Assembly: GCA_965112155.1 (NCBI GenBank)
Contig: OZ218101.1
Length of the DNA: 64,000 bases
From: Podarcis liolepis
Lineage: Eukaryota
Reading direction: 5' to 3' (one strand)
The translations under genes and the position numbers were made by a program. Below, piece by piece: positions 18,767-63,479 of this stretch. Numbering within the stretch: the stretch's first letter is position 1; every line of letters starts with the position of its first letter. The notes beneath the pieces were generated by a model that made no database searches, had not been told where the DNA came from, and was given only the letters and a program-made list of their open reading frames with translations.

Positions 18767-19026
18767 CAGTGATACTTCTAGATACGAATGGGATCCGTTC
18801 CGGAGCCGCGTTCACATCTAGAAGCAAACATAACTGGCGATGGCACATCTGCGCACCCGTGCATCGCTTTTCGCCACTTCAGCGCATGCGTGTGATGTCA
18901 TTTTGAGCGTCTGTGCATGTGCAAGCGGTGAAACCCGGAAGTAACGTGCTCCATTACGTCCGGGTTGCTGCGGAGCATAACTCGAACGCGGTCAACTCGA
19001 AGCGTATTCAACCCGAGGTATGACTG
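18767..19026. mobile_element. MITE family 2
   Basis: TA-CAGTGATAC...GGTATGACTG-TA. Confidence 0.85.
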
Positions 19027-19033
19027 TACTCAC

Positions 19034-19342
19034 GTGTAAGTTCCAGTTGAATTGTGTGACTGTACTGATACACACCATCCTTGGTAAACACTTCTGCTGT
19101 GTACTGTCCGATATCCTGCACATGAGTGGGACACAAGCTCAAGCTGCCATTGTTAAGTATAAGACATCTCTTGCTGTCGTCTATGCAAGTTGTAATATTC
19201 TGGCTGTCCACCTTTCCTATTGTGATATTGCCCTTCTTCCAAATCACATCATGAAGGTGGATGGCTTGTTTCGTGATCTTCATCTCAAGGAGCATACAAT
19301 CACCAAGTGTTCCTTTGGTGAGACTAAGCTGCAGTTTGGATT
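19034..19342 (-). CDS. CD2-like gene B, Ig V domain 2 (paralog of domain 1)
   Basis: ttcag| acceptor, |GTGAGT donor, 309 nt, phase 1-1. 'GTLGDCMLLEM...VIWKKG...NNGSLSLCPT..QDIGQYT' is collinear with the 19746-20054 exon. Confidence 0.85.
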
Positions 19343-19745
19343 CTGAACACAGAGCAAAAATATAGTGGACATACAGTTTACTTCAATCCTCAAAAATGTG
19401 TGCATTAAGTAGATTTGAAAGAATTTTGAAAACTGTTATTTCACTGTATTAAAGTATTTCAATTTCAGGGGTGCATTTCAAATTTCAGCCATGAAACTGA
19501 AAGCAAAGTAGTAAATGCAACTCTCAGGGAGCTATTCAATTTGAAAATTATACTAGAACGCCTTTTAGCTGCATAATGTAACTTCTCTGCCCTCTCCCCT
19601 CCCCATGTGCCCTAAATCTGCTCCTAAATGTGTTCCTCTAACTCTCTAGCTGTTCTGGTTATTATACAGCTGAATGCTGCAAATGCATGGCACTTATTTT
19701 ATAGGAATAACACACAGTTCCTTAGAGGGCCTATCTGATACTTAC

Positions 19746-20054
19746 GTGTAAGCAGCAGTTCCTTTCCGTTTCTGTATTGAATGCGTCCATCCTCAGTATA
19801 TGCTGCCACTGTATAATGCCCAATATCGTCCAACTGGGTGGGACACAAGCTCAAGGTACCATTGTTATAGATAAAACATCTTTTGCTATGGATTGTACAG
19901 TTTGCTTCATTCTGACCATTGATCATCATCCCAATCAAGGCATTGCCTTTCTTCCAAATCACATTGTGAATGTGGATTGCTGGGTTCCTGTTCTCCAGAT
20001 CAAGGAGAATACAATCACCAAGCGTTCCATTGATGAGGCTATCCGCTTTGGATC
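19746..20054 (-). CDS. CD2-like gene B, Ig V domain 1
   Basis: ttag| acceptor, |GTAAGT donor, 309 nt, phase 1-1. 'GTLGDCILLDL...VIWKKG...NNGTLSL...DDIGHYTVAAYTEDG' follows the CD2 N-terminal V-domain pattern (GALGQDINLDI/WEK/NGTLKI/DIYKVSIY). Confidence 0.85.
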
Positions 20055-22274
20055 CTAAGCATGTCAATAAGATGCAATGGGAAGACATTTAATTCATTAA
20101 CACCCAAATTGAACAAAGCATACCAATTCATAAAACTGTGATTTCATGAAATCAAAATGTTCAGATTTCAAGAGGACATCTAAAAATTTCAGACTCAAAA
20201 CACAGCACAAAAGCAAATTCAAATCTCCATAGTAAGACATGGCTGGTAGAATTCATTTCCCAGCTGTAATCAACATAATTTCACACTTTTTCAGAAGTGA
20301 CAGCTTTTAACATAGAACATCCATTTTTAGCATTCTTATCTGACATAATAAATCCCAGGAATGTTTATACCCAATATATCTTTTGTTTCTTTCTTTGTTT
20401 AAAATATTTTATCTCACTCTTCAATTATTCCAGGGTGGTTTACAAATTGGTCTTAAAATAGTAAAGCGCCAATAATTAATATCTATCCTTTCATTGTAAG
20501 TAGTTGCAGCACCACCAGGTTTTATCCAATTGGATTCAAAGAAACCGAGAGTGGATTGTTCAAAATGGTGGGTGTAGAATGCCCTCCTGAATCCAGTAAT
20601 TGTGTCACTGGCTGCTTCTTCCAAACAGTCACTGCATGCTGAAATAGTCAACCCAGACTCAAGTTATTCCAAGCTTACTGGTGTGCCAGTATGGTGGGTC
20701 CACCCCTATAAAATGCTGAAATCCCATTAGTATGCAGTGCTGCCCCATGGAGGCTGCAACTGTCATGGTTGGACACAACTACCTATCTACATGCTCATCT
20801 GATCATGCCATAAATAAGTTTGACCATGATGCCCCTCTCTCAATAAAACATGTATAGAAAAAGGGGCATGAGCTCTGGCAAATCCTCTTTACCACCTGGT
20901 TAGTCACATGATTGTGTGTGCACAGTGGGACATAGCCAGCCACTGTTCCTGCAGTACACTGAATTATTATTTTACATCCAAGAAGAGTTCTATGATAAAA
21001 GAGGTTTGCAAAATTTCAAAATGTTGGAAATTGACAAGAGCTGTCTCAGCTAAAGAGACAGGTAAAAATACTCAAAGTAAATAAATAATAGGCCATTAAG
21101 TCCACCTCCTTGCCACTGGTCATGATTCTCCACACACTAGCATCCTGACCCCTGAGCAGTCCTGACCCCTGAGCTGACAACAAGCAGAGAACAGACTCAA
21201 AATGGACAAAGAGATAAATATCTAAAATGCTGTTAAACAAGCTATATGCTCTCTGTAACATGTTCCCTTTTCCAGGCAGTCTCACCAGAGTATTGACCTT
21301 TTCGTGGAAAATCAGCAGATTCATCCAAAGCCTTATTTGCTCGCATGCCATCACCAAAAACTGGACCAGAAATATAAAAATAATAACATTAAGAAAAACT
21401 GCATATCAAATGGTTCTTTCCACCATATGAATAGATAACCATAAATAATACTACAATCTTAAGGCAGAAATGTATTAGTTTTAGAACATGAACCTGGAGG
21501 GCAAAGTTCCTGTTTCCTAGTTGCCTCCTCATTTTGGAGTTGACACAAGGCTTTGGACATGGGCATCTCATGGACCACTATGAAAGCAAGAATGCTGGAT
21601 TGGATGAGAGTTTGGTCTGATCCAGCAAGCCTCTTCTCATAGTTTTATGTAACTATTAGAGACCTTACAACCAGCTCCAGATTTTCTTCCATCCCATCAC
21701 AATGACAGATGTGTGGACTTTAATCATAAATTTTGACAATAATAAGTATCCTTTCATTCTATATCTGTGATTGTTTTTAAAAGGCATGTTGTTTTTTAAA
21801 CATATCTGCAATCTCATTGACTTCAGTTTCTTTCTGTGATCAAAGCACCATTTTCAAAATTACTTTACCTTATTGTTTTGTCCATTATCTTATTATATAT
21901 ATATAATATATAAATATATAAAGAGATTTGGGGGAGGGGGTTGACCAATCTAGCCAAATACATTTGACTCCTCTTTTACCGAAGGACTAAATAAGCAATT
22001 TCTAACATCAATAGTAATACTGTGCATTAAACTTTTTGGAAATTTGATTATGATTCACCCTTTAAAAATGTATCCCATTCATACACCACTTACAGTTATG
22101 CTTGTTGGATTTACACTGCATTTGATGCAATTACAGCAGACTAAACCTTGGTACTCTGATATATGACAGTCACTGTCTAATCCTACACATAAGCATGACA
22201 TACCAAGTAAGTGACTTCCATGAAATATTTACTTGGTTGTAGTTCATTTACATCCAAGCCGAAAATAAACTTAC

Positions 22275-22338
22275 CTTGAAGAACAAGTATATAAACCATT
22301 GATGGGACAGGAAAAATAGAAAATGCTTGAGAGTTCAT
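22275..22338 (-). CDS. CD2-like gene B, exon 1 signal peptide (MNSQAFSIFPVPSMVYILVLQG)
   Basis: ATG at 22338, 64 nt, phase 1, donor CAAG|GTAAGT. Confidence 0.7.
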
Positions 22339-23134
22339 TTTGGTAGAATGCTGTAGCACGTACATCAGAACACAATATCCTCAGAAACATCCCTACAGTA
22401 ACAGAGCTTCCATAGCATTGCCTAGAAAAGATAAAGGGCTGCTCTATCTTGATTTTAAACTCTTCCTCCTAGGTTCAGTGTAACTTGTCAAAACAGAGAA
22501 GCATGGGAGAGTCGGTTCTTCAAAAGAGAAGCAAGGTGGTTTCAACCACTGTAAGAAATACTCTTGCAAATTGTTAGTAAATGTGTTGCTCACATGCCTG
22601 AATATACAGAAATAGTACCTTTTAAGGCAAATACACGCGAGAGCAAAAAATAGAGATCAAAGATAAGAGCTACAAAGAGCAGAGAGATGTGGACGACCAG
22701 TCCATGATTCAGAGTGGGGAACCTGAAGCAAGTGTTGAGTTGGAGTTAATGAGACTTTATTAATTAAAGTTACATCCAGCCACAGCAGAGCATTTTTACA
22801 GCAAATCCTATACATGCCTATATAGAAGTAAGTCCCACTGAGTTCAATGGGGGTTATTTCTAGGTAAGTAGACATAGCATTGATTATATAGATTCAAACT
22901 CCAATAAGCCAGTGCATTGTACCCCAAACTTGTTGACCAAACTGGAATGGTGATGTGTGAATCAGCAACCATATTGATATAGCTATAAAATAATGCAATG
23001 TACCCAAGATTAGACTCAAATATTAGTTTTCTAATAAAGTCACTGACTCCGAGCTGACCATTTATTTAATATACTTTGAACTCTTCCTTCCACATAACCA
23101 AATTCCAGGCAATGTACAGCTATTAAAACATATT

Positions 23135-23627
23135 CTGTTATAAAGCCCTATATGGCTTAGGTCCAAGCTATCTGAAATACCACATTCCCTCATATGAAGC
23201 TGCCTGGGTTTTGAGATCTTCGGGGCAGGTCCTTTTCTTGGCCCCATCACCCTCATAGGCACACTAGGTGGGAATGGAGAAAAGGGCCTTCTCGGTAGCT
23301 GCTCCCAGACTCTGGAGATTCTTCCTCCCTGGAGAATACAGACTGGCTTCCTCCTTGTTGTCCTTCCGCCATCAGGCTTTTGGGAATTGACCGCTTTAAT
23401 AAAGGGGCTGGTGCTGTGCTGTTTCTATTGCAATTGTTTGTATACCGGTATTTTAAACAAGATTTTATTATGTTAATGTTTAATTGTTTTTTAATGACTG
23501 TTCCCCCATCAATGTTTCTATGTTTTTAGCAATTTCTTGTTTTTATGTATATGCTGCCTTGAGTCCTGTCAGGGGAGAAAGGCGGGGAATGTGCAACTAA
23601 CTAAATAAATAAATATTAAATAAATAA
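23135..23627 (+). mobile_element. L2-clade LINE 3' fragment
   Basis: AAAGCCCTATATGGCTTAGGTCC (KALYGLGP); (TAAA)n tail. Confidence 0.7.
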
Positions 23628-23657
23628 GCAGCAGTAGTAGTAGTAGTACTGTGGTAC

Positions 23658-24355
23658 TAAAGGGAGATGGGAAAGGTTTCTCTTAATATTTTATTCTGTT
23701 GCTCTTAAATATTATCTACACATAATAAATTCCTGCACTCTGCTAGGATGGTTAAAACAGCCCAAAAATTGCAGTAGCTTGCAAAAGCCTAAACCAGCTA
23801 CTTGAAACTGCTGATGCTAGCTACAGGTCAGAAGGTCGCTTCCTGCCTAGCCAGAAACTGCTGTTAACTAGAAAAACCACTAGCAAGATGTTTCCTGTTT
23901 TACTTCTGCTTAGTAATGCAAGAAGAAAACCACTAGCAAGATGTTTCCTGCTTTTACTTCTGCTTTTAAGTAATGCAAGATAGGAAGAGATACGAAGGAA
24001 ATGCTTAACTAGCAAAAGAAGACACGTGTACAAGGAGGTGGGAGGGAGTGCTGGCTTAGCAGAAAGACAGGAATGATTTAGCAAGCAATATTTTGTGTTT
24101 AGCAAGCAATATTTGCTAGTCGATTGGGGAAGTCCGGCGGGTATAAGAAAGTCTGTTGAAGTGACTTGCTTTACAGCCAGAATATTTTTAGGAATTATCC
24201 AGTTGGCTGTCTCTGAGTACAGACCTTGACTCTGTGCACAGAATCTCAATAAACTCTTTTTCTCCAAAGAAGATTTTGCTTTCCTGGTACTTTTGTTCCC
24301 TCCGAGGTCCAAGGGAACTGCGTGGCTAATGGATCCCTAGGTAAATAAGGCTTCA
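23658..24355 (+). repeat. ERV 5' LTR
   Basis: TAAAG...CTTCA; inverted CCAAT at 24123-24127, TATAAGAAA at 24142, AATAAA at 24248-24253; tandem ~52-bp U3 duplication at 23872-23980. Confidence 0.97.
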
Positions 24356-24361
24356 TCTCTC

Positions 24362-24379
24362 TGGGGGCTCGTCCGGGAT
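24362..24379 (+). promoter_or_regulatory. primer binding site, tRNA-Pro
   Basis: TGGGGGCTCGTCCGGGAT, the MLV-type Pro PBS, 6 nt after the LTR end. Confidence 0.95.
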
Positions 24380-24572
24380 CAGCCCCCTTCCCAAATACGG
24401 ACCGGAGGGCCAGGCTCAACCAAGGTGAACAGCTCCAATCGGCGTTCGCATTTCCGGTGCACACCCTGCCAGTTTGTAGGGGGAGATTGCCACACCGTCC
24501 TGGAGCAGAGACATCTGGTTGAGGGAGAATAAGAAGACAGAACGGCGCCGAGGGGACAGGTCCGCAGCGGAG

Positions 24573-24581
24573 AAGGTAAGC
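24573..24581 (+). promoter_or_regulatory. ERV major splice donor
   Basis: AAG|GTAAGC in the leader about 200 nt after the PBS, as in gammaretroviruses. Confidence 0.75.
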
Positions 24582-24913
24582 CCGAGGGAAAGGGCTAGGG
24601 GCCCGAGGGAAAGGGCTAGGGGCCCGAGGGAAAGGGCCAGAGGTCTGATCAGCCTCACCTGGTAGTTGGCAGTAAGAATGCCACCAGGAAAGGAATTGGT
24701 AAAGGTTTGGGAAAGGGAATGGGGCAGAGGGAATTGAGTGTTTTGTTGATATGTTGTGTGTCAGATACTCTAGTGGATGAGTTGTTGAATGAGGGCTAAG
24801 GCTTAGTGTTCCCTTGGCCGAGCGATTGTAGGATTGTGCATTTTCTGACAAACTGTAGCATGTGGAGTGTGAAAGAATTTTGAAACCCAGTTAAGAGGAG
24901 AGTATCTGAAAAA

Positions 24914-25940
24914 ATAGGATTTGGAGCAAGCCAATGTATTCCTCTGGAATGCTTTTTAAATAACTGGAAAACAGCCACGAAGAGTGATGATTTGGGGATT
25001 CAAATTGAAAAACAGAGACTCAAAACTTTATGTGAGGTGGACTTGCCAACCCAGGGAACTGCGTGGCTTTGATTTGCAATTAATCAACCCCCTGTGGCAA
25101 ATCAACCCCCTGTGGCAAAATATATTAAATGTCCACCCAGACCAGATCCCCTATATCTCTACATGGAAGACCAATGTAAAAAAAAAGAATCTACCATGGC
25201 TAAAGTCTTGCTGTGACAGCAACACACAGAACAGGATTTGTACAGTGAAGCCTCTGGTGTTAGAAGACCCAGAAGATGAGGAGAGGGGAGTGATTAAGCC
25301 ACCACCTTACACTCCACCAACAGCCCCCTCCAACCCCCCCCCCAGGCCAAAATCAAAAAGCACAGGGAGGTGCTGGTGTAGGGGGAGGAGGACCTGCGAA
25401 GGAAGATAGTGAGACGGAAGAAGAGGAAGATGAGGAAGATAACGAAGAGTTTAGGAAAACACTAGATGATATGAATCAAGGAAAGAAAATGTGGACAGAA
25501 AGACAGAAAAAGAGACTAAAAGGAGTTTGTAAAGCCATTTGAGGGAAAAAGTTGGATGTGAGCCCCTTGTTAGTTGAGACAGCAGAATACTGCACCCCTG
25601 AAAAGAGGAAGAGATGGCAACGTAAGTGGGGACAGGCGGCGAAGAGAGTTATGTCTCACAGACAGTATGAGAAAACCAGGAAGGATCAGGCAGCTGGAGA
25701 AATGCCCCTTCAGAGGGTTTATGATCCACCAGCCCCTGTCCCAGCTGGACAAACGAAGGCACCACGGTCCAGCATATACCCTTTTCAAGTGCAGATGTTT
25801 GTAATTGAAGAAATCAGAACCCCTCTTTTGAGGAGAATCCAGCAAAGATTGTAAAATTGTTTGAAGGGATTTTTTTAAAACCTATAATCCCACTTATGAT
25901 GATGAACAATATCCCCTGGACTCACTACTAACTACAGAAG
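24914..25940 (+). pseudogene. gag: ERV gag remnant (MA, late domain, CA N-terminus)
   Basis: (ATA)GFGASQCIPLECF..LKTLCEVD, HPDQIPYISTW, PPPY, PFSSADVCN*RNQNPSFEENPAKI. Start codon apparently ATG>ATA; frameshifts and stops; rest of CA/NC deleted. Confidence 0.88.
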
Positions 25941-28165
25941 CATTGCTTGGCCCCTGCATGAGTCAACTAGGGGAATAGAGAAGGATCCTTTTATATGGGG
26001 CAGGGAACAGCAGCAGGCTTTTCAGGGTCTCAAAGTGACATTACAACAAGCCCCAGTGCTTGGCATCCAAACCCCGAGAAGCTTTTTACCCTGTTCACAG
26101 ATGAAGACCAGGGGGGTAGCCAAGGGAGCCTCATGCCAGAAACTGGAAAATTGGCAGCAACCTGTCGAATACTTGTCAGAGAAGCTAACCCCAGCAGAAC
26201 AGAGGTTGCCCCCCCCCCGTATGAGAGTGATTGTGGCAGTGGCCACCCTACTCACAAAGGGCAGATAAATTCACGTTTGGACAGGACACCAGCTGTGTAA
26301 CTCCAAGAGGAAGTGCCAGATGCTGTTATTACATTCACGCCTGAAGTTTCAGGTTGCCACAGCCCTTAACCTAGCTACCTTATTACAGGTAGGAGAAGGT
26401 GAACAAGGGAGCTGCCCACTCAGTCTTACCTGTGCCTGTAACAAAACCCACAAACCAAGTGGTTAATATAATTAGAGCCACAGGTAAATCACAAAAGGCC
26501 CCATTTTTGCAGTCTGTTACCTGCTGCCTAGGTGGCCAAGTAGCCCAGCACAAAATTTTTGTATATACCAGAGTGTCCCATTCCTTTATTGGGCCGAGAC
26601 TTGTTAACAAAATTGCAAGCCCAGATTTCCTTCCAACCAATGGGGAAGTAATGATGACAACTGGACCAGCAGGAGAGTTTTCTTTAGAAATGCCCCTGAG
26701 AGACCATTGGTGCTTGATGATGGTAAAAGAAGAGGAGGGAATCCTCCCTGTTAGCCTGCTTCATGATGTTGACCCTGGACTATGGGTGGAAGATAAAAAC
26801 CAATACCCATCCCACGACAGGCAGCTGAAGGGGTGTGGGTGCATTTGAAGCGATTGCTTCAACATGGAATCTTGAAACAATGCCAATCACAGTGAAACAC
26901 CCCACTGTTGCCAGTGAAGAAGGAAGATGGTGGGTACTGCATATAGGCCCCAAAGTTCTGGAAAAAAGGAAAGGAAGAACAGGACTTTGAAAAACCATTG
27001 ACCCAAGAAACAGGGTCTAATTGGGAGTTCATGTTGCCCTTGGCTTTGCTTAGAGTCTGTAGCCTCCCATTGAAACGTAGTCGCTTGTCACCCTTTTGAA
27101 GTGATGTTTGGGAGACCGGTTCCTTATGTGTGCATGCTTTCACCTATCCCTGCTCAAGATATGGAATTGAACAATTATGTACAGTCTCTCTCTCGAGATT
27201 CTCTCTCTCAACCCAGGCCCGAACTCCTTGCGTGACCAGTTTGAGCCAAGTGACGAGGTGTGGATAAGACTGGTCCCAGGCACCACTGCAACCGTGCTGG
27301 AAGGGCCCATCTGCTCTCCACACCCACAGCTGTGAAGATCGCTGGCACCACCCCTTGGGTCCACCACATTCAAGTGGAGAAAGCTGCTTCAGATTGGACT
27401 GTGTCTCAGCATCCTGAAGATCCCCTCCAGTGACGACTGCCTTGCTGATATCACTCCAGAGGCTGATATCTCTACGCACGGTGAAGAATTGGATGGGAGG
27501 GGCGCCCACAGGCAGCGCCCCCAACGTAGACATTTGTTCTCCAGCCAATTTAGAGGCACCACCAGGACTTTTGATATTGGTACCAGAACTCACTCCAGAC
27601 GATGTGGAACCACGTTACACCCTTGATGAACAGCAGTGGACCAGCCAAGAAGGAGCAACGCTCCAGGAAGGACCAGACAGCCGTGTTTTTGTGCCCCAAC
27701 ATCTGGCCAGCACAATTGTAAAGAATTACCACGAGTCCACCCATTTGGGAGGCCCAGCTGCTAAAGCACACCTTGGGAGAATATTCTACCTCAACTAACT
27801 GCTGCTATAACTAACTGCTGCTATATCCCAAAATGTGCCCTGTGCGCCAACCAAGAGACTGAGAACTATCACCCTGTGAACTTCTATATGGCAGGCCAAC
27901 CCCTTTCGTCCGAGGCATCCCCGCCAGTTTGGGGCAGATGGGAGATCACATCACCCAAGAACAAGTGCAATCCCTGTGTTTGTTGTGTGTGTTTGCTTCC
28001 TTTCCAGGTATTCCCTCGAGCGTACACCTGCAGTCCCGCGGCAGTCTCGCTGAGCCGGTTCACCAGTTCCTCTGAGTGACAGTGTCTGGCGACCCCCTCA
28101 TCCCCAACTGCAGTGAAAGTAGTCGAGGTGATCCCCTGGGTACATCACACGCATCTGAAGAAGGG
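25941..28165 (+). pseudogene. pol: ERV pro/pol fragments, deleted and out of order
   Basis: In order: RT connection (FIWGREQQQAF..APVLG; LNLATLL), protease (VNKGAAHSVL; [16 protein letters not shown]), RT N-terminus (GILKQCQSQ*NTPLLPVKK), IN core (AYRPQSSG), IN CTD (TPTAVKIAG.TPWVH), IN zinc finger (YHESTHLG..CALC), second IN CTD (PTAVKVVEVIPWVHHTHLK). Confidence 0.88.
27975..28007 (+). promoter_or_regulatory. ERV env-type splice acceptor
   Basis: tgtgtttgcttcctttccag|G inside the integrase-derived region, the usual position of the env acceptor. Confidence 0.7.
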
Positions 28166-28340
28166 TGTCTGGACTTGCAAGAGAAATCCTGCTGACCCTC
28201 TGAAGTTGATCATCACCTTGTGTCTGACGCTACCAGGAAAAGCGTTAGGCCACGGGCAACGCGATCCTGCGACTAATCATCACAAGGACAGTTACAAAGA
28301 CTTTCTCTTTTCTCTCTTATTTTCTTTATTGACTTGCTCT

Positions 28341-28748
28341 ATGTCTTATTGCCCTGACCCTACCGAACCATACCGCCCTTATTGGCCTGCTGACCTCTGC
28401 TACGACTGGTTCGTCTTGCCGGTGGTAAGAGATGGCGTGCTCCTTGGCTATTGGAAACTGGGGTTTGATGAGATTACCGTATTGAGACACCCCACTGCCC
28501 CGTTGTGGCTCCTCTCCCACACCACTGACCAGCACGCGTGGACAGTGCTCTTACGGGAAGCTGCAGAGACAATCGAAATCTATCTAGTTCTGTACCGCTC
28601 TTGCTGTTGTGGGAGGGTAGTCAACTGTTATCCGGAAGGTAGAGCACTGTACCAACCTCATTTGATAGAACAGGTCCTACTCTTAACCCAGGTCATAGAT
28701 GGGACAGAACCTATCTTAATGCAAGTATTGCAGGGGTGGGAGCCTTAG
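28341..28748 (+). CDS. intact 135-aa ORF of unknown function in the env position (MSYCPDPTEPYRPYWPADLCYDWF...VLQGWEP)
   Basis: First ATG after the 28007 acceptor; no stops or frameshifts, unlike the neighbouring gag/pol; no motif I recognise. Confidence 0.55.
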   Translation: MSYCPDPTEPYRPYWPADLCYDWFVLPVVRDGVLLGYWKLGFDEITVLRHPTAPLWLLSHTTDQHAWTVLLREAAETIEIYLVLYRSCCCGRVVNCYPEGRALYQPHLIEQVLLLTQVIDGTEPILMQVLQGWEP

Positions 28749-29086
28749 CCAGATGTGCATTGAAATTACTAAACAAGTGCCAGTAAGAATTGCCACCCCA
28801 GGATTTCAGCTTCCATATGCTCTGGTCACTGGGGAGGCAGCACGAGAGTTCAATCCACCCAACAGGGTTAATAGAAAAATTGACCCACATAGTGGGAGCA
28901 TCAGCTCACCGGTGGGCTCTCATCCTTGAGGCTCAACAGGTAGTCGGGCACAAATATCAGTGGGCTCTTCAACAATGAGCACACCCCCTGAATATTGGTG
29001 GGAGGAACCATGGAGATATTGAGTTTGGTGGGTAGGAGTGATATGTACCGCTCTTGTCATATGGATGCTCTCGTATTTCTGTTGGC

Positions 29087-29248
29087 ATGAACGGTATCGT
29101 ATTTGTGGGAAGAATAGGCCCAATAATGCTTCTATTGCTTCTTTGCTTCTGTATACCCTGCTTGATGCAATGCCTGCAACATATGATGGGAAAGATGATG
29201 TCTCGCATGATGAGGGCCTCGCGTGATTGCTGTAATGAGAGAATATAG
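29087..29248 (+). pseudogene. env: env TM / cytoplasmic tail remnant
   Basis: 'IGPIMLLLLLCFCIPCLMQCLQHMMGKMM' resembles a class I env membrane anchor plus tail and lies just upstream of the PPT. No SU or ISD seen. Confidence 0.6.
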
Positions 29249-29286
29249 ACCCCTACCCCAGAACGAATCTAAGTAATAGATTGTTC

Positions 29287-29303
29287 AAAAGAAGAGGACG
29301 GAG
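29287..29303 (+). promoter_or_regulatory. polypurine tract
   Basis: AAAAGAAGAGGACGGAG immediately before the 3' LTR. Confidence 0.9.
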
Positions 29304-30001
29304 TAAAGGGAGATGGGAAAGGTTTCTCTTAATATTTTATTCTGTTGCTCTTAAATATTATCTACACATAATAAATTCCTGCACTCTGCTAAGATGGTTA
29401 AAACAGCCCAAAAATTGCAGTAGCTTGCAAAAGCCTAAACCAGCTACTTGAAACTGCTGATGCTAGCTACAGGTCAGAAGGTCGCTTCCTGCCTAGCCAG
29501 AAACTGCTGTTAACTAGAAAAACCACTAGCAAGATGTTTCCTGTTTTACTTCTGCTTAGTAATGCAAGAAGAAAACCACTAGCAAGATGTTTCCTGCTTT
29601 TACTTCTGCTTTTAAGTAATGCAAGATAGGAAGAGATACGAAGGAAATGCTTAACTAGCAAAAGAAGACACGTGTACAAGGAGGTGGGAGGGAGTGCTGG
29701 CTTAGCAGAAAGACAGGAATGATTTAGCAAGCAATATTTTGTGTTTAGCAAGCAATATTTGCTAGTCGATTGGGGAAGTCCGGCGGGTATAAGAAAGTCT
29801 GTTGAAGTGACTTGCTTTACAGCCAGAATATTTTTAGGAATTATCCAGTTGGCTGTCTCTGAGTACAGACCTTGACTCTGTGCACAGAATCTCAATAAAC
29901 TCTTTTTCTCCAAAGAAGATTTTGCTTTCCTGGTACTTTTGTTCCCTCCGAGGTCCAAGGGAACTGCGTGGCTAATGGATCCCTAGGTAAATAAGGCTTC
30001 A
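29304..30001 (+). repeat. ERV 3' LTR
   Basis: Identical to the 5' LTR by manual comparison except G23746 vs A29392. Confidence 0.97.
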
Positions 30002-30225
30002 GTACCTCGGGTTACATACGCTTCAGGTTGCAGATGCTTCAGGTTACAGACTCTGCTAACCCAGAAATAGTACCTCGGGTTAAGAACTTTGCTTCAGGAT
30101 GAGAACAGAAATCGTGGCAGCAGCAGGAGGCCCCATTAGCTAAAGTGGTGCTTCAGGTTAAGAACAGTTTCAGGTTAAGTACGGACCTCCGGAACGAATT
30201 AAGTACTTAACCCGAGGTACCACTG
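30002..30225. mobile_element. MITE family 1 copy split by the ERV (first 9 nt at 23649-23657)
   Basis: TA-CTGTGGTAC | ERV | GTACCTCGGGTTACATACG...GGTACCACTG-TA. Confidence 0.92.
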
Positions 30226-31477
30226 TAGTAGTAAACAGTTACAGTAAGAGGACCATTCAACAAGAAGAACAGGTTAGACAACCCTAATTATGAACAAATT
30301 CCTTGATATTCAAATCTTTAAAATACAGGCTTCCATACTTCCAGCAATAAACTAACCAATTGCAATCCTGTACCCACGAGAATAAGCCCCACTGAACTCA
30401 ATGGAACTTATTTCTGAGGAGACATGCAGTGGGTTGCACTGTAAATCTAATACTGTGCAAGCACCAGTGCAAACAAGAGAACCTATGAGAAGAGAATAGC
30501 TTTAATTAACCGAGGGATCTGTGAATGATGGTAAGATATGTTTACATGCTTGCCATCTAGAGGCCAGAAGGCAAAAGTGTGGGGGTTTTTTGAGGAAAAA
30601 GTTGGCACTGAGCATGCTCAAGGCCTGTGTTCTTGGGAGCGGTTCCAAGATGGATGCCAGAGTAAAAACTGTATAAAATAAACCAAGAAATAAAAGCCGC
30701 TATAGTTCATCTTATCACTGTAGCTTGCATTCACTGTTCTGCCCTGCTGTCCACTTTGGCATACTGCTGTGGCTGCCTCCAGAGAAGCCTTTAGCGCTTC
30801 CTGGCTTCCTCTTGAAATTGCCCCATTTCTGCCCAAACTATTGCTGTAGCATTTGCTGATGCAATTGATTCCTGCCCTGTGTTCATATTATTATGAATGC
30901 AGTGCTTGCATCTTACTGGTGGTGCTTGGAACGAAATCTAATTTAGCTAAAGCTTAATTCTGAGCGTCCCCTGGGGAACCAGCAGTAACTGTGTGTGTCC
31001 GTTACAAATGGAACTTTTTTCCTTACTTCGTTACTCATCGCAAAGAAGCACAGGGCAGGCTGCCATATTTTTCTCAGCATGAAGGGCACTGTGAGGTAGA
31101 TTCAGGGGTAGATCAGTCTCAATAGCAAAGTAAACATTGAAAATCTTGAATACGCTGGACTAAAGCTGAGCCACTAAACACCAGGTACTGAGCTCTTGTG
31201 CCTCAACACCGGGATGGGGAATCCTCAATTTAATCTGTTGTACAGCACTAGCTGTTAAAAAATAGTGAATTCACACTGTGCACACACGTAGCTATGTGTA
31301 TTGGGGGGCAGTTGCTCTTTGCTCTGGGAGGGGAGCAATGGGGGGCTGGGCTTTTTTTCTAGGCAGCAACAGCTCCCCGTCTTTTTGTGGCTGTATGGTT
31401 CACAATACTCAGGATTAAATATGTCTTGGTTCTTTATTGGCCAGGAGGTGTTGGTGCAAATAAAATAACTCTTCAGT

Positions 31478-32340
31478 AGGGAGCCTCTGAATGCAGAAAG
31501 GATTGTGCTACTTGCAATGATTGAAAATATTTCACTGGCTCCAAATCTGGACAGTACCTACACAAACCAACTGTGTAGGTACCTACACAAACTGTGTTGT
31601 ACCTGTGTGACATCTCTTCGGAGACAGGATCTAGCCTGTCCACTTGCTTGGGAAAAGGTCTTGAGAAAACGCAAGCAGGAGCAGTGTCCCAGGAGACATC
31701 CAGAGTCGAATGTCTGTATGTTCTGAATGTGACAAGAGCTTTAAGTTGGAGCATCAGACTTGGTCCTGCACCGGAGGACGCACTTTGGAGAAAAGCTCTT
31801 TAAGTGTACTGAGAGCTCACATCTCACTCGGCCCCTGAGAATTCACACTGGACAGAAACCATATATGTGTCATGAGTGTGGGCATAGCTTCAATCAGAGA
31901 TCCAATCTTACCAAACATTGGAGAATACATGCATGTGCAACATGTGGAAAAATAATCAGTGCCAGCTCCGCCTGTAGCAAAGGATGCACACAGGAGAGAA
32001 GCCATAAAAGTGTCCAGAATGTGGGAAGAGCTTTAGCCAACCATCTCATGTCACTCATCACCAATGGATCCACAGTGGGGGGGGGGAGCCCTAAATGTGT
32101 GTGGAGCATGGGGAAAGCTTTGAGGAGGGCTCAGATCTCATTAACCACAGAAGAACCCACACTGGTGAGAAACCCTATAGCTGCAACCAGCTATACCTCA
32201 GTGGGTATTCCAGCCTCATTGAATGCCAGAGAATTCATACAGGAGAACATTCGTATATGTGTGATGATGCAGGAAATGTTTCGGGTTCCAGCCCAAGCTT
32301 CTGCGACATCAGAAACACTATGCTTGACATAATTAAATCT
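31478..32340 (+). pseudogene. degenerate C2H2 (Kruppel-type) zinc-finger exon
   Basis: HTGQKPYMCHECGHSFNQRSNLTKHWRIH, HTGEKP*KCPECGKSF and HRRTHTGEKPYSC in shifting frames, with lost Cys/His. Confidence 0.8.
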
Positions 32341-33084: not shown

Positions 33085-33850
33085 TGTTATGTACTGAGCT
33101 GAATCCTAGAACAATAGGATCCAGAATGCAGCAGTCTGATTGGTCCGCAGGAGCCACCCAATCCAGCTCCAGATGGAAGCGAATCAGCAACCTGATTGGC
33201 TTGCAGGAGCAGCCAATCAGGCTTCTGAAGGAGGTAAATCCGCAACCTGATTGGCCTACAGGAGCAGCCTGGAATTAGCCAATCATGCGGGGCCCATTGT
33301 GCAAATAATGTATAAATACCTGTAGCTAGATGTTTTGGGGAAAGATTCATTCATTGCTACTATGAGCTGAATAATGAGCATGAAATTCACACTTGACTCC
33401 GAGTATATTTCACTGGCGACGAAGGTGGGATTCCACTGAGCTGACTGCCACGCACAGCACCGCAGCACGCCACACTGCTGCATCGCACCATGCAGCCAGG
33501 CTTCAGCTCTGGGACCCAAGGAACTCAGAATGGCAACCGACAGTAGCTTCTTGCCGTTCAACCCAGCATCAGGAGACTGGGAAGGGTACGCCACCCGTTT
33601 CAACTTCCTCCTAGAAGCTAAAGAGGTCACCAACGATGCCACAAAGAGGGCGACATTCCTCAGCGTCTGCGAAGAGGAGGCGTTTGAAATTGCCCAGGCT
33701 CTCCTTGCACCTGAAGACGTCGCTACCGTTTCTTACAAAACAATAATGGAACGGCTAAAGGGGCACTTCTCGCCGCAGCCCTCAGTGGTAGCTTGCCAAA
33801 ATGCCTTCTAAGCAAAGCGGCAAGCCCCTGGGGAAACCATAACCGGATTT
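33085..33850 (+). mobile_element. 5' part of a Ty3/Gypsy LTR retrotransposon (LTR 33085-33412, PBS 33414-33431, gag start 33530)
   Basis: TGTTAT...TTTCA LTR with repeated CCAAT boxes; PBS TGGCGACGAAGGTGGGAT (tRNA-Ser(GCU)-like); gag 'FNPASGDWEGYATRFNFLL..KRATFLSVC..LKGHFSPQPS...*AKRQAPGETI'; truncated. Confidence 0.85.
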
Positions 33851-36493: not shown

Positions 36494-36693
36494 NNNNNNN
36501 NNNNNNNNNNNNNNNNNNNNNNNNNNNNNNNNNNNNNNNNNNNNNNNNNNNNNNNNNNNNNNNNNNNNNNNNNNNNNNNNNNNNNNNNNNNNNNNNNNNN
36601 NNNNNNNNNNNNNNNNNNNNNNNNNNNNNNNNNNNNNNNNNNNNNNNNNNNNNNNNNNNNNNNNNNNNNNNNNNNNNNNNNNNNNNNNNNNNN
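36494..36693. other. assembly gap (200 N)
   Basis: Run of N; the round number suggests a placeholder size. Confidence 0.99.
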
Positions 36694-37653
36694 ATGAATC
36701 TAGATAAAAACCAGAAATCTCACCACAAGTACAAGGGTCACAGCAGCTCCTTGTAAGCTGCCAGATGGCACGTGGACCTTCCTTTCTCCATCACCCAAGC
36801 CAACATAATTGCACTAACTGATCTTCCTCAGATCAATAATTCTCTGGTTATACATGTGTGTGCTCAGTACTTCTTTATGGCCAGAGCTGCCATGAATGTG
36901 CTTCCTTTAACTGAGTGACCAGTGGGCAATTTTCTGACCGATCAGCCAAAAACTGCACCAGGCAGCCTTCTAAATTAATTTGGCACATCAGTGGATTATC
37001 AGCTAGTGCAAGTACTTTTAACTACTCAACAAGCAACAAGTTATTAAGAAGGAAATATATAGGTTTTCAATTTTCCCATCCAACACCACCAGTAGACAGA
37101 TAATTAACAACTGTTCCAACTGCTCAAAAAATAAGGTGAACAGATGCCACTTCCAAATGTTGTCTAGACTCTGAACTTTGGAAACTTTTAAAAGAATTGT
37201 CTTTCTACTCAGGTCACTAGGATCAACTCAGGCAACTATTGCTTTCACCCATCATCAGTGACCCAGAATTCATTTACGATTTACTGAAATTAGATTATTT
37301 TGCTTCCTTTCTTATCAACCTCTAGCCTGACCCCTTCTGCTCAAGATATTCCTCTTTGTACTCCTCAGTTCTCTGAATCAAGGCAGATTTTTTATAATGC
37401 ATTTTGTACTCAGATTCTACGGCCTAAGACTGAAACACGTAAGCGGCCACGATTTTCAGGCTCCCCCTGCAACAGGTGTGCAAGCAGGGCTGAGATCTTT
37501 CCCCAGTTGCAACTTGAGTAACAGAACCAGAGTACAAAAACATTGACTACGAAGCAGCCCTAAGTTGTTGCCCCATCAGCCCAGAACCTATCCACCCTGC
37601 CTGGTGATTCTTGCTCAGCCCATTTGGATCAGGAGTGTCAGACATGGCCTCAC

Positions 37654-37797
37654 TGTTTTCTTGGGTTCTTTCTTCCTTTTCTTATCTGAGTTATTCAGGC
37701 TTGGTTGTTCTCTGCTTCTGTATGAAGGGCCTCGGCTCAACTCCCGTTCGCTGTATGGCGGCAGAGTGTCTTCCCCTTCCTCTTGCTGTGGAGGTTG

Positions 37798-37828
<31 letters not shown>

Positions 37829-38344
37829 CCTGGTTTGTAAGTGGATGGTGGCGACCAAGCATAGTATGTCCCTCCTCTCTGGCTGGATTGCGAGCTAAAC
37901 TTTGAAGGTGTCCCGCCATGATCACCACCTTCATCATAGCTTCGCGATTTCCTCTCAAGGGCACTGGTAAGGTAGGAGTGGTCATACTTCTGACTCCCTC
38001 CCGGTGTCCGACACACTAGCCTAGGCAAGTGTTTCTCTTCGTGGGCACGTCTCCTGGGTGGGCTATACGTCCAGCCCCGATCCGAATCTGTCAACGGCTC
38101 ACGGTTTCCTGCCCTGTGCTTGCCATAATACTCATCGGATGAGTTTTCTGGGTGTTGAACTGCACCCCCACGTGCTCCTCTGGATCCTGTCCTCTCAAAG
38201 CGCCGGGGCTCCTGAGGGCCTTCTGTCCGACAGACGTGCTGACTGTAGGACTCGGCGAAGGCTGCAAGTTCATCCATGGAGACAGCCGGTACTCCCATGG
38301 AGAAACTCTTCCTTGAGAGCATTTCTGACTTGCATCTCTGCTGG
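37654..38344 (-). CDS. ILDR2: ILDR2 exon 9 (cytoplasmic tail)
   Basis: 'SEMLSRKSFSMGVPAVSMDELAAFAESY...YYAWSPPSTYK...LPPYSERELSRGPSYR...KKRKKEPKKT'; 691 nt; phase 2-0; donor |GTGAGG. Confidence 0.93.
37795..37827 (-). repeat. (CAG)7(CAA)4 coding polyglutamine tract in ILDR2 exon 9
   Basis: PGQQQQQQQQQQQPPQQ. Confidence 0.95.
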
Positions 38345-38505
38345 CTGAAAGAGACGGGAAATGGTTCGTGTTTTTTGTTTCAAATCAGTAAGCCAGTCTT
38401 GTAACTGGACTTGCCTGCTCGTCTAGGGTGAGCAAGCAATAAACCCCAAGCGAAGCACCTGAATGACATATGCCAACAGCCTAATATCCTTCTGCTTAGC
38501 AAAGG

Positions 38506-62090: not shown

Positions 62091-62966
62091 CTGAAAAACA
62101 ATATAAGAGAAATAGTAGAGTCAGAAACACAGAGAAAAGGTGAAGGACTAAAAACAAGGCTTTCACTAACAGTTGTTACTGGCAGGAGTGCATTTTTCTT
62201 CCTTAGAGAAATAAGCACACTCCAGTGAGCCACAGTGCACTCCAGAGAGTCAGCAAACTTCGCTGGACAGTGATTTGGATCCAGGAGACCAAATTGCTAT
62301 TTATTGAGGAACACACCAGATTGTCTTTTCCACAATGAAAGTAGGACACATGTAAACCTATCTCACAATGCTATTTGTTCCCATGCCCTTCAACACGGAA
62401 GCAAGGTATAGGCCCATTCACATCACAGGCTCCTGCCCCAATCCACATATACAACACAAACATCTGTAGGGAGGGGGCCTTCACATATAGCTGAACATGC
62501 AATGGCTTCTTTGGAATCTAGGATCTGGGTGGTCAGGGTTCCAGATCACAAGAAAGCCTTCATGCAGTGCAAAGTGATTGTGAATAATTTTTATTTCTAT
62601 AGGAAGGGACATACACCTCAACAACACACACAAAGAAAAATATCTTCTATTTTACCAAGGTTTTTACAACTTAATTTTTGCATATTGTTTTACACTGCCA
62701 TTAGATGTTTTTACATCTAAGATCTCTCTGCCTTGTTAGTTTTCGTGTTTTATTGAAATTCATACTTTAACCATTTCTCAGGTTTTTAAAATGTAAACTG
62801 CCCTGGGAATATGACAAGAGTGGAATATACATGCCTATAATATATAGTATTAAATAAGCACACTGATCCTCATAAGAGAGATCCAAAACACTGGTGTAAT
62901 TTTCTACCATTCATAATAGCCAAAGAAGCTTTCTCATAATTAATAAACTGCTAGGCAGGCAGTTAC

Positions 62967-63299
62967 CATGGAGAATGGTGACATCTCTTCCCTTGTAGAA
63001 TTCTCCAACTGTGACCGACGGGCCCTGCTTGGAAGCCACAATGCGGACCGTTCTTCTGCTGTCCACGCAGTCCAAGTATGGATCCCATTCCAGGTTCCTC
63101 TTGCTCACAGCCTGTAAGCCTGCAGAGACCACTCCCAGAGCTTCTCCCATGCGGTCTTGGCAATATGATTTGAACTTCCACTGCACCACAGCTGGTTGTG
63201 TGGAGGAAGTTGAAAAGTGGCATCGAAGCACGACAGACTGAAAGAGCATGGCCACCTTTTTCTTTTCCGGCACCATGACCTGAAGCCCTTCAGTCACAG
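62967..63299 (-). CDS. ILDR2: ILDR2 exon 2 (Ig V domain)
   Basis: 'LQVMVPEKKKVAMLFQSVVLRCHFSTSSTQPAVVQWKFKSYCQDRMGEALG...WDPYLDCVDSRRTVRIVASKQG'; 333 nt; AG/GT borders. Confidence 0.95.
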
Positions 63300-63479
63300 C
63301 TACAAGACAAAAAGTATGAACGTTATTGATTTGTGAGGTATCAGCCATCTGTTCAGTGGTTCAGATCAAGACAGAATGTTATACGGGAGATTGCCATCAG
63401 CTTTTGGTGCTAAGAAGAAAATGTGCTGGAGAAATACTGGCAGCAAGGCAATAGTGCTATTTAATGCATCAAAACAATA

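Follow-up and report, generated by a model that had tools for sequence, protein, structure and literature searches.

Defective or recombinant endogenous retroviruses (ERVs) that spread with the help of other viruses are described, in the published accounts cited here, as VL30 and ETn/MusD of mouse, recKoRV of koala and EAV-HP/ART-CH of chicken (PMC4859993, PMC6466679, PMC6112702, PMC4607243). In the available text of these sources, mouse VL30 measures 4.1-6.3 kb, is present in tens of full-length copies and in some cases has a Pro primer-binding site (PBS) (PMC4859993, PMC6466679), and EAV-HP/ART-CH occupies about 20-27 sites per bird by a strict count (PMC4607243). Here we describe a 6344-bp element at positions 23658-30001 of a 64,000-nucleotide stretch of contig OZ218101.1 (assembly GCA_965112155.1) from the lizard Podarcis liolepis; the whole stretch is referred to as the window. 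The element works like the systems named above and belongs to none of them, and it very likely entered the germ line recently, as one copy of a chimeric ERV family of wall-lizard-type lacertids that is class I (gamma-like), non-autonomous and multi-copy.

As these systems are set out in the accessible parts of the cited accounts, the element shares with mouse VL30 class I membership, a non-autonomous character, near-identical long terminal repeats (LTRs), an intact PBS and polypurine tract (PPT), a 4-bp target-site duplication (TSD) and non-coding gag and pol remnants (PMC4859993, PMC6466679), but it differs in its lizard host, its shuffled two-lineage interior, its two integrase ends and its open orphan reading frame. 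The first of the two published VL30 PSF motifs gave no match at three or fewer mismatches; the second was not searched. An initial annotation of the window, made from the letters alone, had called the element VL30-like, which is apt for its mode of action, but structurally it stands nearer a recombinant such as recKoRV. Like koala recKoRV, which is thought to have been re-mobilised, it is a two-lineage recombinant with disrupted open reading frames (ORFs) and many copies; whereas in recKoRV the ends of KoRV flank an older insert and the helper is known, the lizard element has one lineage (A) at its 5' side, another (B) at its 3' side, and a permuted pol (PMC6112702). Mouse ETn/MusD is likewise a non-coding LTR element that is mobilised in trans and polymorphic for insertion, but it is class II (beta-like) and its helper was proven by experiment (PMC6466679). 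Chicken EAV-HP/ART-CH is also a non-mammalian defective ERV, thought to be helper-spread and having recombinant LTRs, but it is related to avian leukosis virus and is not gamma-like (PMC4607243).

The element consists of two 698-bp LTRs and a 4948-bp interior (Table 1). The LTRs differ by a single mismatch in 698 positions (23746/29392) with no indels, and the TSD is GTAC on both sides, exact over its 4 bp, just as the initial annotation had reported. Of the perfect PBS and PPT that it had claimed, the PBS, which we take to be of tRNA-Pro type, is intact; the PPT falls one purine short. Retroviral LTR ends are usually TG...CA. Both LTRs here start with TA and end with CA, a departure from the class I pattern that has no bearing on the descent of the element, and the TSD is exact despite the TA start and the six bases (24356-24361) between LTR and PBS. 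A 21-nt unit is present in three tandem copies (24580-24640) directly after the splice-donor-like site of the leader, and no GACG word occurs in the leader.

More than plain decay has shaped the interior: it is a chimera in which pieces from two gamma-like retrovirus lineages have been shuffled. With the reverse transcriptase (RT) piece as query, a homologue search yielded 7 gene models for Gag-Pol in Podarcis and Zootoca; 8 more came from a cluster look-up. The Podarcis and Zootoca Gag-Pol models P0001-P0007 and P0009-P0016 represent the source lineage of the 5' pieces, lineage A, with pol identities of 77-81% for Podarcis and 58-74% for Zootoca. In P0005 numbering the lineage A pieces run, in window order, as Gag 2-181, RT thumb/connection 749-925, protease plus RT N-terminus 340-543 and integrase C-part 1313-1516, and are 68-79% identical to P0005. 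They are followed by integrase N-part 1090-1201 and then by integrase C-part 1366-1496 again, both only 41-52% identical. This second integrase set matches protein P0008 at 61-67%, and since P0008 is itself only 51-53% identical to lineage A, the set represents a second lineage, B. The order of the pieces is permuted, with RT before protease, and the element carries two different integrase C-termini; the reference models, in contrast, are colinear and have their catalytic motifs. The element retains 46% of a protein of this kind, in rearranged order; the initial annotation had recognised neither the permuted order nor the second lineage. At the first three junctions the neighbouring pieces share 10, 8 and 2 nt, and the third junction lies at a Tyr-Arg-Pro motif that occurs in the RT as well as the integrase of the reference models. 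Such short overlaps are consistent with template jumps in reverse transcription as the probable cause.

Table 1. Features of the element and its insertion site in the window (all on the plus strand).
Feature	Coordinates	Strand	Remarks
Left part of miniature inverted-repeat transposable element (MITE), first 9 bases of terminal inverted repeat	23649..23657	+	Cut by the insertion; left TSD at 23654-23657
5' LTR	23658..24355	+	698 bp; TATA-like word 24142; AATAAA 24248; 25-nt U3 repeat 23873
PBS	24362..24379	+	Starts 6 nt past the LTR
Splice-donor-like site, leader	24573..24580	+	Consensus match; putative
Lineage A gag remnant (matrix, proline/acidic linker, capsid start)	24914..25939	+	63-68% to Podarcis models; weak Pfam Gag_MA matches
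Lineage A RT thumb/connection, misplaced	25930..26406	+	77-78% to P0005/P0004; Pfam RT_RNaseH_2
Lineage A protease + RT N-terminus	26399..26937	+	79-81%; protease active-site residues lost at junction, polymerase core deleted
Lineage A integrase C-terminal part, first copy	26936..27482	+	79% to P0005 1313-1516; Pfam MLVIN_C
ATG-started stretch past lineage A pol end, fused to lineage B	27493..27582	+	Position only
Lineage B integrase N-terminal zinc-binding piece	27583..27846	+	61-67% to P0008, ~41% to lineage A
Lineage B integrase C-terminal piece, second copy	27863..28220	+	48-52% to lineage A; splice-acceptor-like site ends 28007 (acceptor scan)
ORF-X	28341..28748	+	Open 135-codon frame; relatives at 76, 65, 57, 55, 35%
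Stretch without assignment	28749..29113	+	No Pfam match in scanned frames
Putative env membrane anchor + cytoplasmic tail remnant	29114..29240	+	Hydrophobic reading; no Pfam match
PPT	29287..29303	+	Purines 16/17
3' LTR	29304..30001	+	698 bp
Right TSD (30002-30005) + MITE remainder	30002..30228	+	86-88% to 3 other window copies

The coding regions are damaged throughout. The gag remnant lacks a start codon at 24914, where the reference Gag models begin, and contains 6 frameshifts and 1 stop, with the remaining capsid and the nucleocapsid deleted. The initial annotation had read the catalytic DTG of the protease as NKG; the active-site residues are indeed lost, but at the junction where the RT piece (ending at 26406) overlaps the protease piece (starting at 26399) by 8 nt; NKG lies in this overlap and is not a point mutation. 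Measured against P0016, 736 of 1595 residues (46%) are represented in the element, and the LPQG and YVDD motifs, the nucleocapsid knuckle, the RNase H Asp motif and the first two integrase Asp motifs lie outside all matched stretches. Over 1058 aligned codons, a frameshift-aware alignment counted 23 frameshifts along with 4 stops; these counts vary with the gap penalties chosen. The lost gag start, the missing RT catalytic core and the many stops and frameshifts of the initial annotation are all borne out. Without nucleocapsid, RNase H and the cores of RT and integrase, the element cannot copy itself; it has no Gag-Pol coding capacity and is in this sense non-autonomous. Membership of class I is supported by the Gag_MA, MLVIN_C and RT_RNaseH_2 matches and by the similarity of the RT thumb/connection piece to residues 319-420 of murine leukaemia virus RT (E 9e-14); relatives carry PF02093 and PF18697, and the 4-bp TSD and the PBS and PPT adjoining the LTRs agree with this class. 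Searches of PDB sequences with the protease frame and the lineage B integrase frame gave nothing meaningful. The ATG-started stretch beyond the lineage A pol end is possibly the start of the lineage A env. Just before the env anchor remnant, an ATG-started short, hydrophobic, tryptophan-rich reading with one stop (28975-29113) may represent a further small ORF or the leader of env.

Four sequencing runs, out of 24 listed, were compared with window positions 19600-29303. Three were DNA runs, namely X1, X4 (with the same species label as X1) and X3 (organism B), and one was an RNA run, X23 (organism F). The depth of single interior contigs relative to flank contigs was 28-35 in X1 (4/4 listed pieces), 14-37 in X3 (4/4) and 20-37 in X4 (5/5). 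The initial annotation had named single-copy status as a finding that would speak against it; the dominant contigs instead stand at 14-37 times single-copy depth in all three DNA runs. Two of the five junctions were bridged among the 24 pieces listed of about 3500, the RT-to-protease junction by X1 record 6 (depth 826) and the RT-to-integrase junction, at the right end of the protease/RT piece, by X4 record 21 (depth 222). The high-depth contigs over the interior, together with these two bridged junctions, indicate that the rearrangements are family-wide, and the family was found under at least two species labels. Contigs in X1, X3 and X4 share the sequence from position 27583 on, with other sequence upstream (loose ends); further derivatives of lineage B exist. 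X4, labelled as the species of X1, departs from the window flank to the same degree as organism B (29/2917 versus 34/3587).

The copy in the window differs from the dominant contigs at 11 of 1379 positions in X1, 22 of 1580 in X4 and 29 of 2064 in X3 (about 0.8-1.4%), with many of the positions recurring across the three DNA runs, and has indels relative to them at 24667, 25284, 26259, 26641, 26805 and 29213. If these differences had arisen after insertion, 11-20 LTR mismatches would be predicted, and the probability of one or fewer would be 1.8e-4 to 6e-8. Because the rearrangements are common to the family and the private differences exceed the divergence between the LTRs, the damage predates integration, as the initial annotation had argued. 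With the substitution rate given for P. muralis in the available text of PMC8760935 (1.98e-9 per site per year), we infer from the single LTR mismatch an insertion age of 0.36 million years (My; 95% range 0.009-2.0). The flank of the window diverges from X3 and X4 by about 2.4-2.5 My. X3 record 12 (2917 letters, depth 10.3) fits 23140-23530 and then continues for 2533 letters unlike the window; since it runs on without an LTR, organism B, a close relative, has none at this site, though one may have been deleted there. Presence at the orthologous site in distant relatives was a further observation that the initial annotation had set against itself, and organism B does not display it. The window has A where the other copies have G in 17 of the 39 listed element differences, and T for C in 7 of 39 (from 40 of 336 rows); a test for APOBEC-type change on whole-run counts of X1 gave 38 versus 29, with mixed neighbouring bases. 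The longest word common to LTR and interior is a 16-nt word in U5 (24312-24327) and gag (25053-25068); it covers two adjacent sites at which each of the three DNA runs has dominant LTR contigs unlike the LTRs of this copy, and was possibly copied from gag during reverse transcription.

The family probably arose when RT repeatedly switched templates among RNAs packaged together. One backward jump, with two deletions, would have shuffled the lineage A gag-pol, to which a further jump would have attached the integrase and 3' region from lineage B. The retained cis signals (LTRs, PBS, PPT and leader) would let the family RNA be packaged, reverse-transcribed and integrated, with Gag-Pol presumably supplied in trans by another provirus or an infecting virus. 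The donor of the window copy would already have drifted by about 1% from the main subfamily; reverse transcription would then have reset its two LTRs to identity, and integrase would have made the 4-bp duplication.

An older insertion, of some 4 My, would allow 0.8% to accumulate on one branch if the LTRs were later equalised by gene conversion, and such a history would suit both the 0.8-1.4% separating the interior from the dominant copies and the differences from the dominant LTR contigs that both LTRs have in common. However, 4.0 My exceeds the 2.4 My of flank divergence from organism B, whose contig is without the LTR, so that lineage sorting or a later deletion would also be required, and the family would still need mobilisation in trans; we regard this account as improbable. 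Alternatively, recombination in the last cycle might have placed the LTRs of another virus, active at present, around a defective interior of older date, as in recKoRV. The window LTR does differ from the dominant LTR contigs by 5 listed substitutions and at 5 listed indel sites, and the family is already a product of recombination, but the LTR contigs pool solo LTRs and subfamilies and lose rare variants, and at 2 of those sites X4 mostly has the letter of the window. We hold an origin of this kind to be distinctly improbable, and it would be a variant of recent integration of the chimeric family rather than a true alternative to it.

Three private 1-nt indels in short homopolymer runs, and the lack of a single listed contig spanning the whole element, could suggest an assembly artefact, with LTRs collapsed or over-polished, or residual long-read indels in the interior. 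The flanks, however, are perfect against X1 (0 differences over 3768 bases), the LTR pair has no indel difference and the TSD is exact, the junctions recur in contigs of independent runs, and polishing to the majority would erase minority alleles rather than create them. An artefact is therefore the explanation to which we give least credence.

Several observations weigh against a recent, helper-driven integration of the chimeric family. A TA start is unusual for an LTR as integrase substrate, and the RNA fold of the leader was no better than that of shuffled sequences (z -0.96). The identity of its flanks makes X1 probably the source individual, so that it is not independent, and the depth ratios translate only roughly into tens of copies (some 15-35 per genome) of the family, since depth is not copy number. 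No contig among those listed spans the junctions at about 25935, 27583 and 27862, and the contigs of X1 and X4 end before the insertion site, which leaves X4 uninformative there and makes polymorphism of the site within the species, as suggested by the initial annotation, no more than a possibility. In the RNA run X23 (about 12% of the run) 395 reads were placed, only 8 of them at 99% identity or more; depth peaked at 22 over 28996-29303 and was below 1 in the LTR bins. That the host species carries an intact helper is a presumption. Three gene models of two Podarcis species (P0011, P0016 and P0002) have protease, RT, RNase H and integrase motifs in a single protein, so that Podarcis does have lineage A proviruses whose pol frames are long; these models may splice around stops, however, and are only 77-81% identical to the pieces of the element. 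Dependence on a helper is what we infer from the inability of the element to copy itself. The first mate of the X23 reads in the element lay on the minus strand in nearly all cases, which usually denotes sense RNA, and 30 reads match from 29114 on and differ from the element upstream of that position. The X23 signal is a related env-type transcript and not the chimeric family.

An open frame, ORF-X, occupies the position where env should start, after the lineage B integrase. Its ATG (28341) is the only one in 27950-28400 and the first after the acceptor-like site ending at 28007. Six relatives were found, all in Logan contigs, four of them full-length (76, 57, 55 and 35%) and two shortened; the initial Met is aligned at position 1 in 4/4 rows, although ORF callers report open frames only. 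An AlphaFold model from a 4-row alignment has a helix and a five- to six-strand meander, with a predicted local distance difference test score (pLDDT) of about 80 over residues 21-70 and a predicted template-modelling score of 0.60. P0020 folded alone showed the same order, one helix and five strands (pLDDT 46, without a matched non-coding control). ORF-X matched no Pfam family above noise, neither it nor P0020 had an Atlas match, a profile search of PDB sequences gave nothing meaningful, and Foldseek against viral and PDB libraries gave no match under E 0.001; the best VIA-align result (Z 6.9, root-mean-square deviation 4.4 over 118 residues) was within the background range. No related locus was present in 40 viral-contig or 90 metagenome-contig candidates. 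As an env surface subunit ORF-X was rejected: there is no signal peptide after the Met, no env Pfam match, and the relatives end at 130-147 residues.

If damaged at the rate of the other pieces, a frame of this length would stay open with a probability of 0.03, but the frame was chosen after the fact. Conservative substitutions made up 31-35% in 4/5 relatives, against 28% expected, and 14% in the fifth, none significantly, and 3/5 of the listed ORF-X differences are synonymous. Against a gene, the frame in the window stops 5 codons before the end of P0017, and minority copies have deletions across it (joints 28279-28383 and 28442-28790). The depth of X23 over ORF-X was 0.33, and no donor-acceptor joint was listed, though donor and acceptor consensus sequences are present. 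As a coding gene ORF-X is a lead, not a result. It may be a real viral gene in lineage B, a possibility to which we give a little less than even weight. It is unlikely that lineage B stands for a lizard class I retrovirus not described before, its pol and env separated by an accessory gene, with ORF-X expressed from a spliced RNA and kept open because it aids the spread of the family, for example by countering a host restriction factor or in RNA export, and quite unlikely that ORF-X is both a real gene in lineage B and still at work in the chimeric family. If that scenario were true, the element would be a defective passenger contributing a protein and not a pure parasite. The available text of PMC9967133 states that viruses with gamma-type Env have few accessory genes, and that of PMC6995185 reports extra ORFs before gag and not between pol and env; a functional ORF-X would found a new accessory-protein family in a group said to have few (PMC9967133).

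Among literature titles and the opening lines of abstracts we found neither an account of this chimeric family nor a report of any class I ERV of lizards with an accessory ORF between pol and env, though the family may exist in repeat libraries under a repeat name. Podarcis env genes are described, with no link to the chimeric element in the accessible part of that source (bioRxiv 2024.03.17.585361). The insertion points to germ-line retroviral Gag-Pol activity in a lacertid within about 0.01-2 My, of which no description was found for Podarcis, and adds a reptile to mouse, koala and chicken as hosts in which recombinant ERVs have been amplified in dependence on helpers. Its copies could provide presence/absence markers for closely related wall-lizard lineages.

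The insertion struck a short DNA transposon, the MITE of Table 1, in its terminal inverted repeat. The empty-site probe proposed in the initial annotation lies in this terminal repeat, of which the window holds three more copies, and an anchor in unique flanking sequence is therefore needed. Immunoglobulin-type exons of CD2/SLAM-like genes are present on the minus strand at 1316-1648, 19008-19382 and 19699-20088, with weak Pfam Receptor_2B4 and V-set matches; the closest one, at 3.6 kb from the 5' LTR, is oriented away from it, and at this distance from an immune gene exon a regulatory effect of the insertion is testable. Two exon-like stretches on the minus strand (37615-38379 and 62911-63360), without a Pfam match, presumably belong to an ILDR-family gene. 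A decayed C2H2 zinc-finger frame (31745-32332) lies 1.7 kb beyond the 3' LTR, and a fragment at 33440-33811, also without a Pfam match, resembles what we take to be a gypsy-type gag. An assembly gap of 200 N (36494-36693) lies 6.5 kb from the element.

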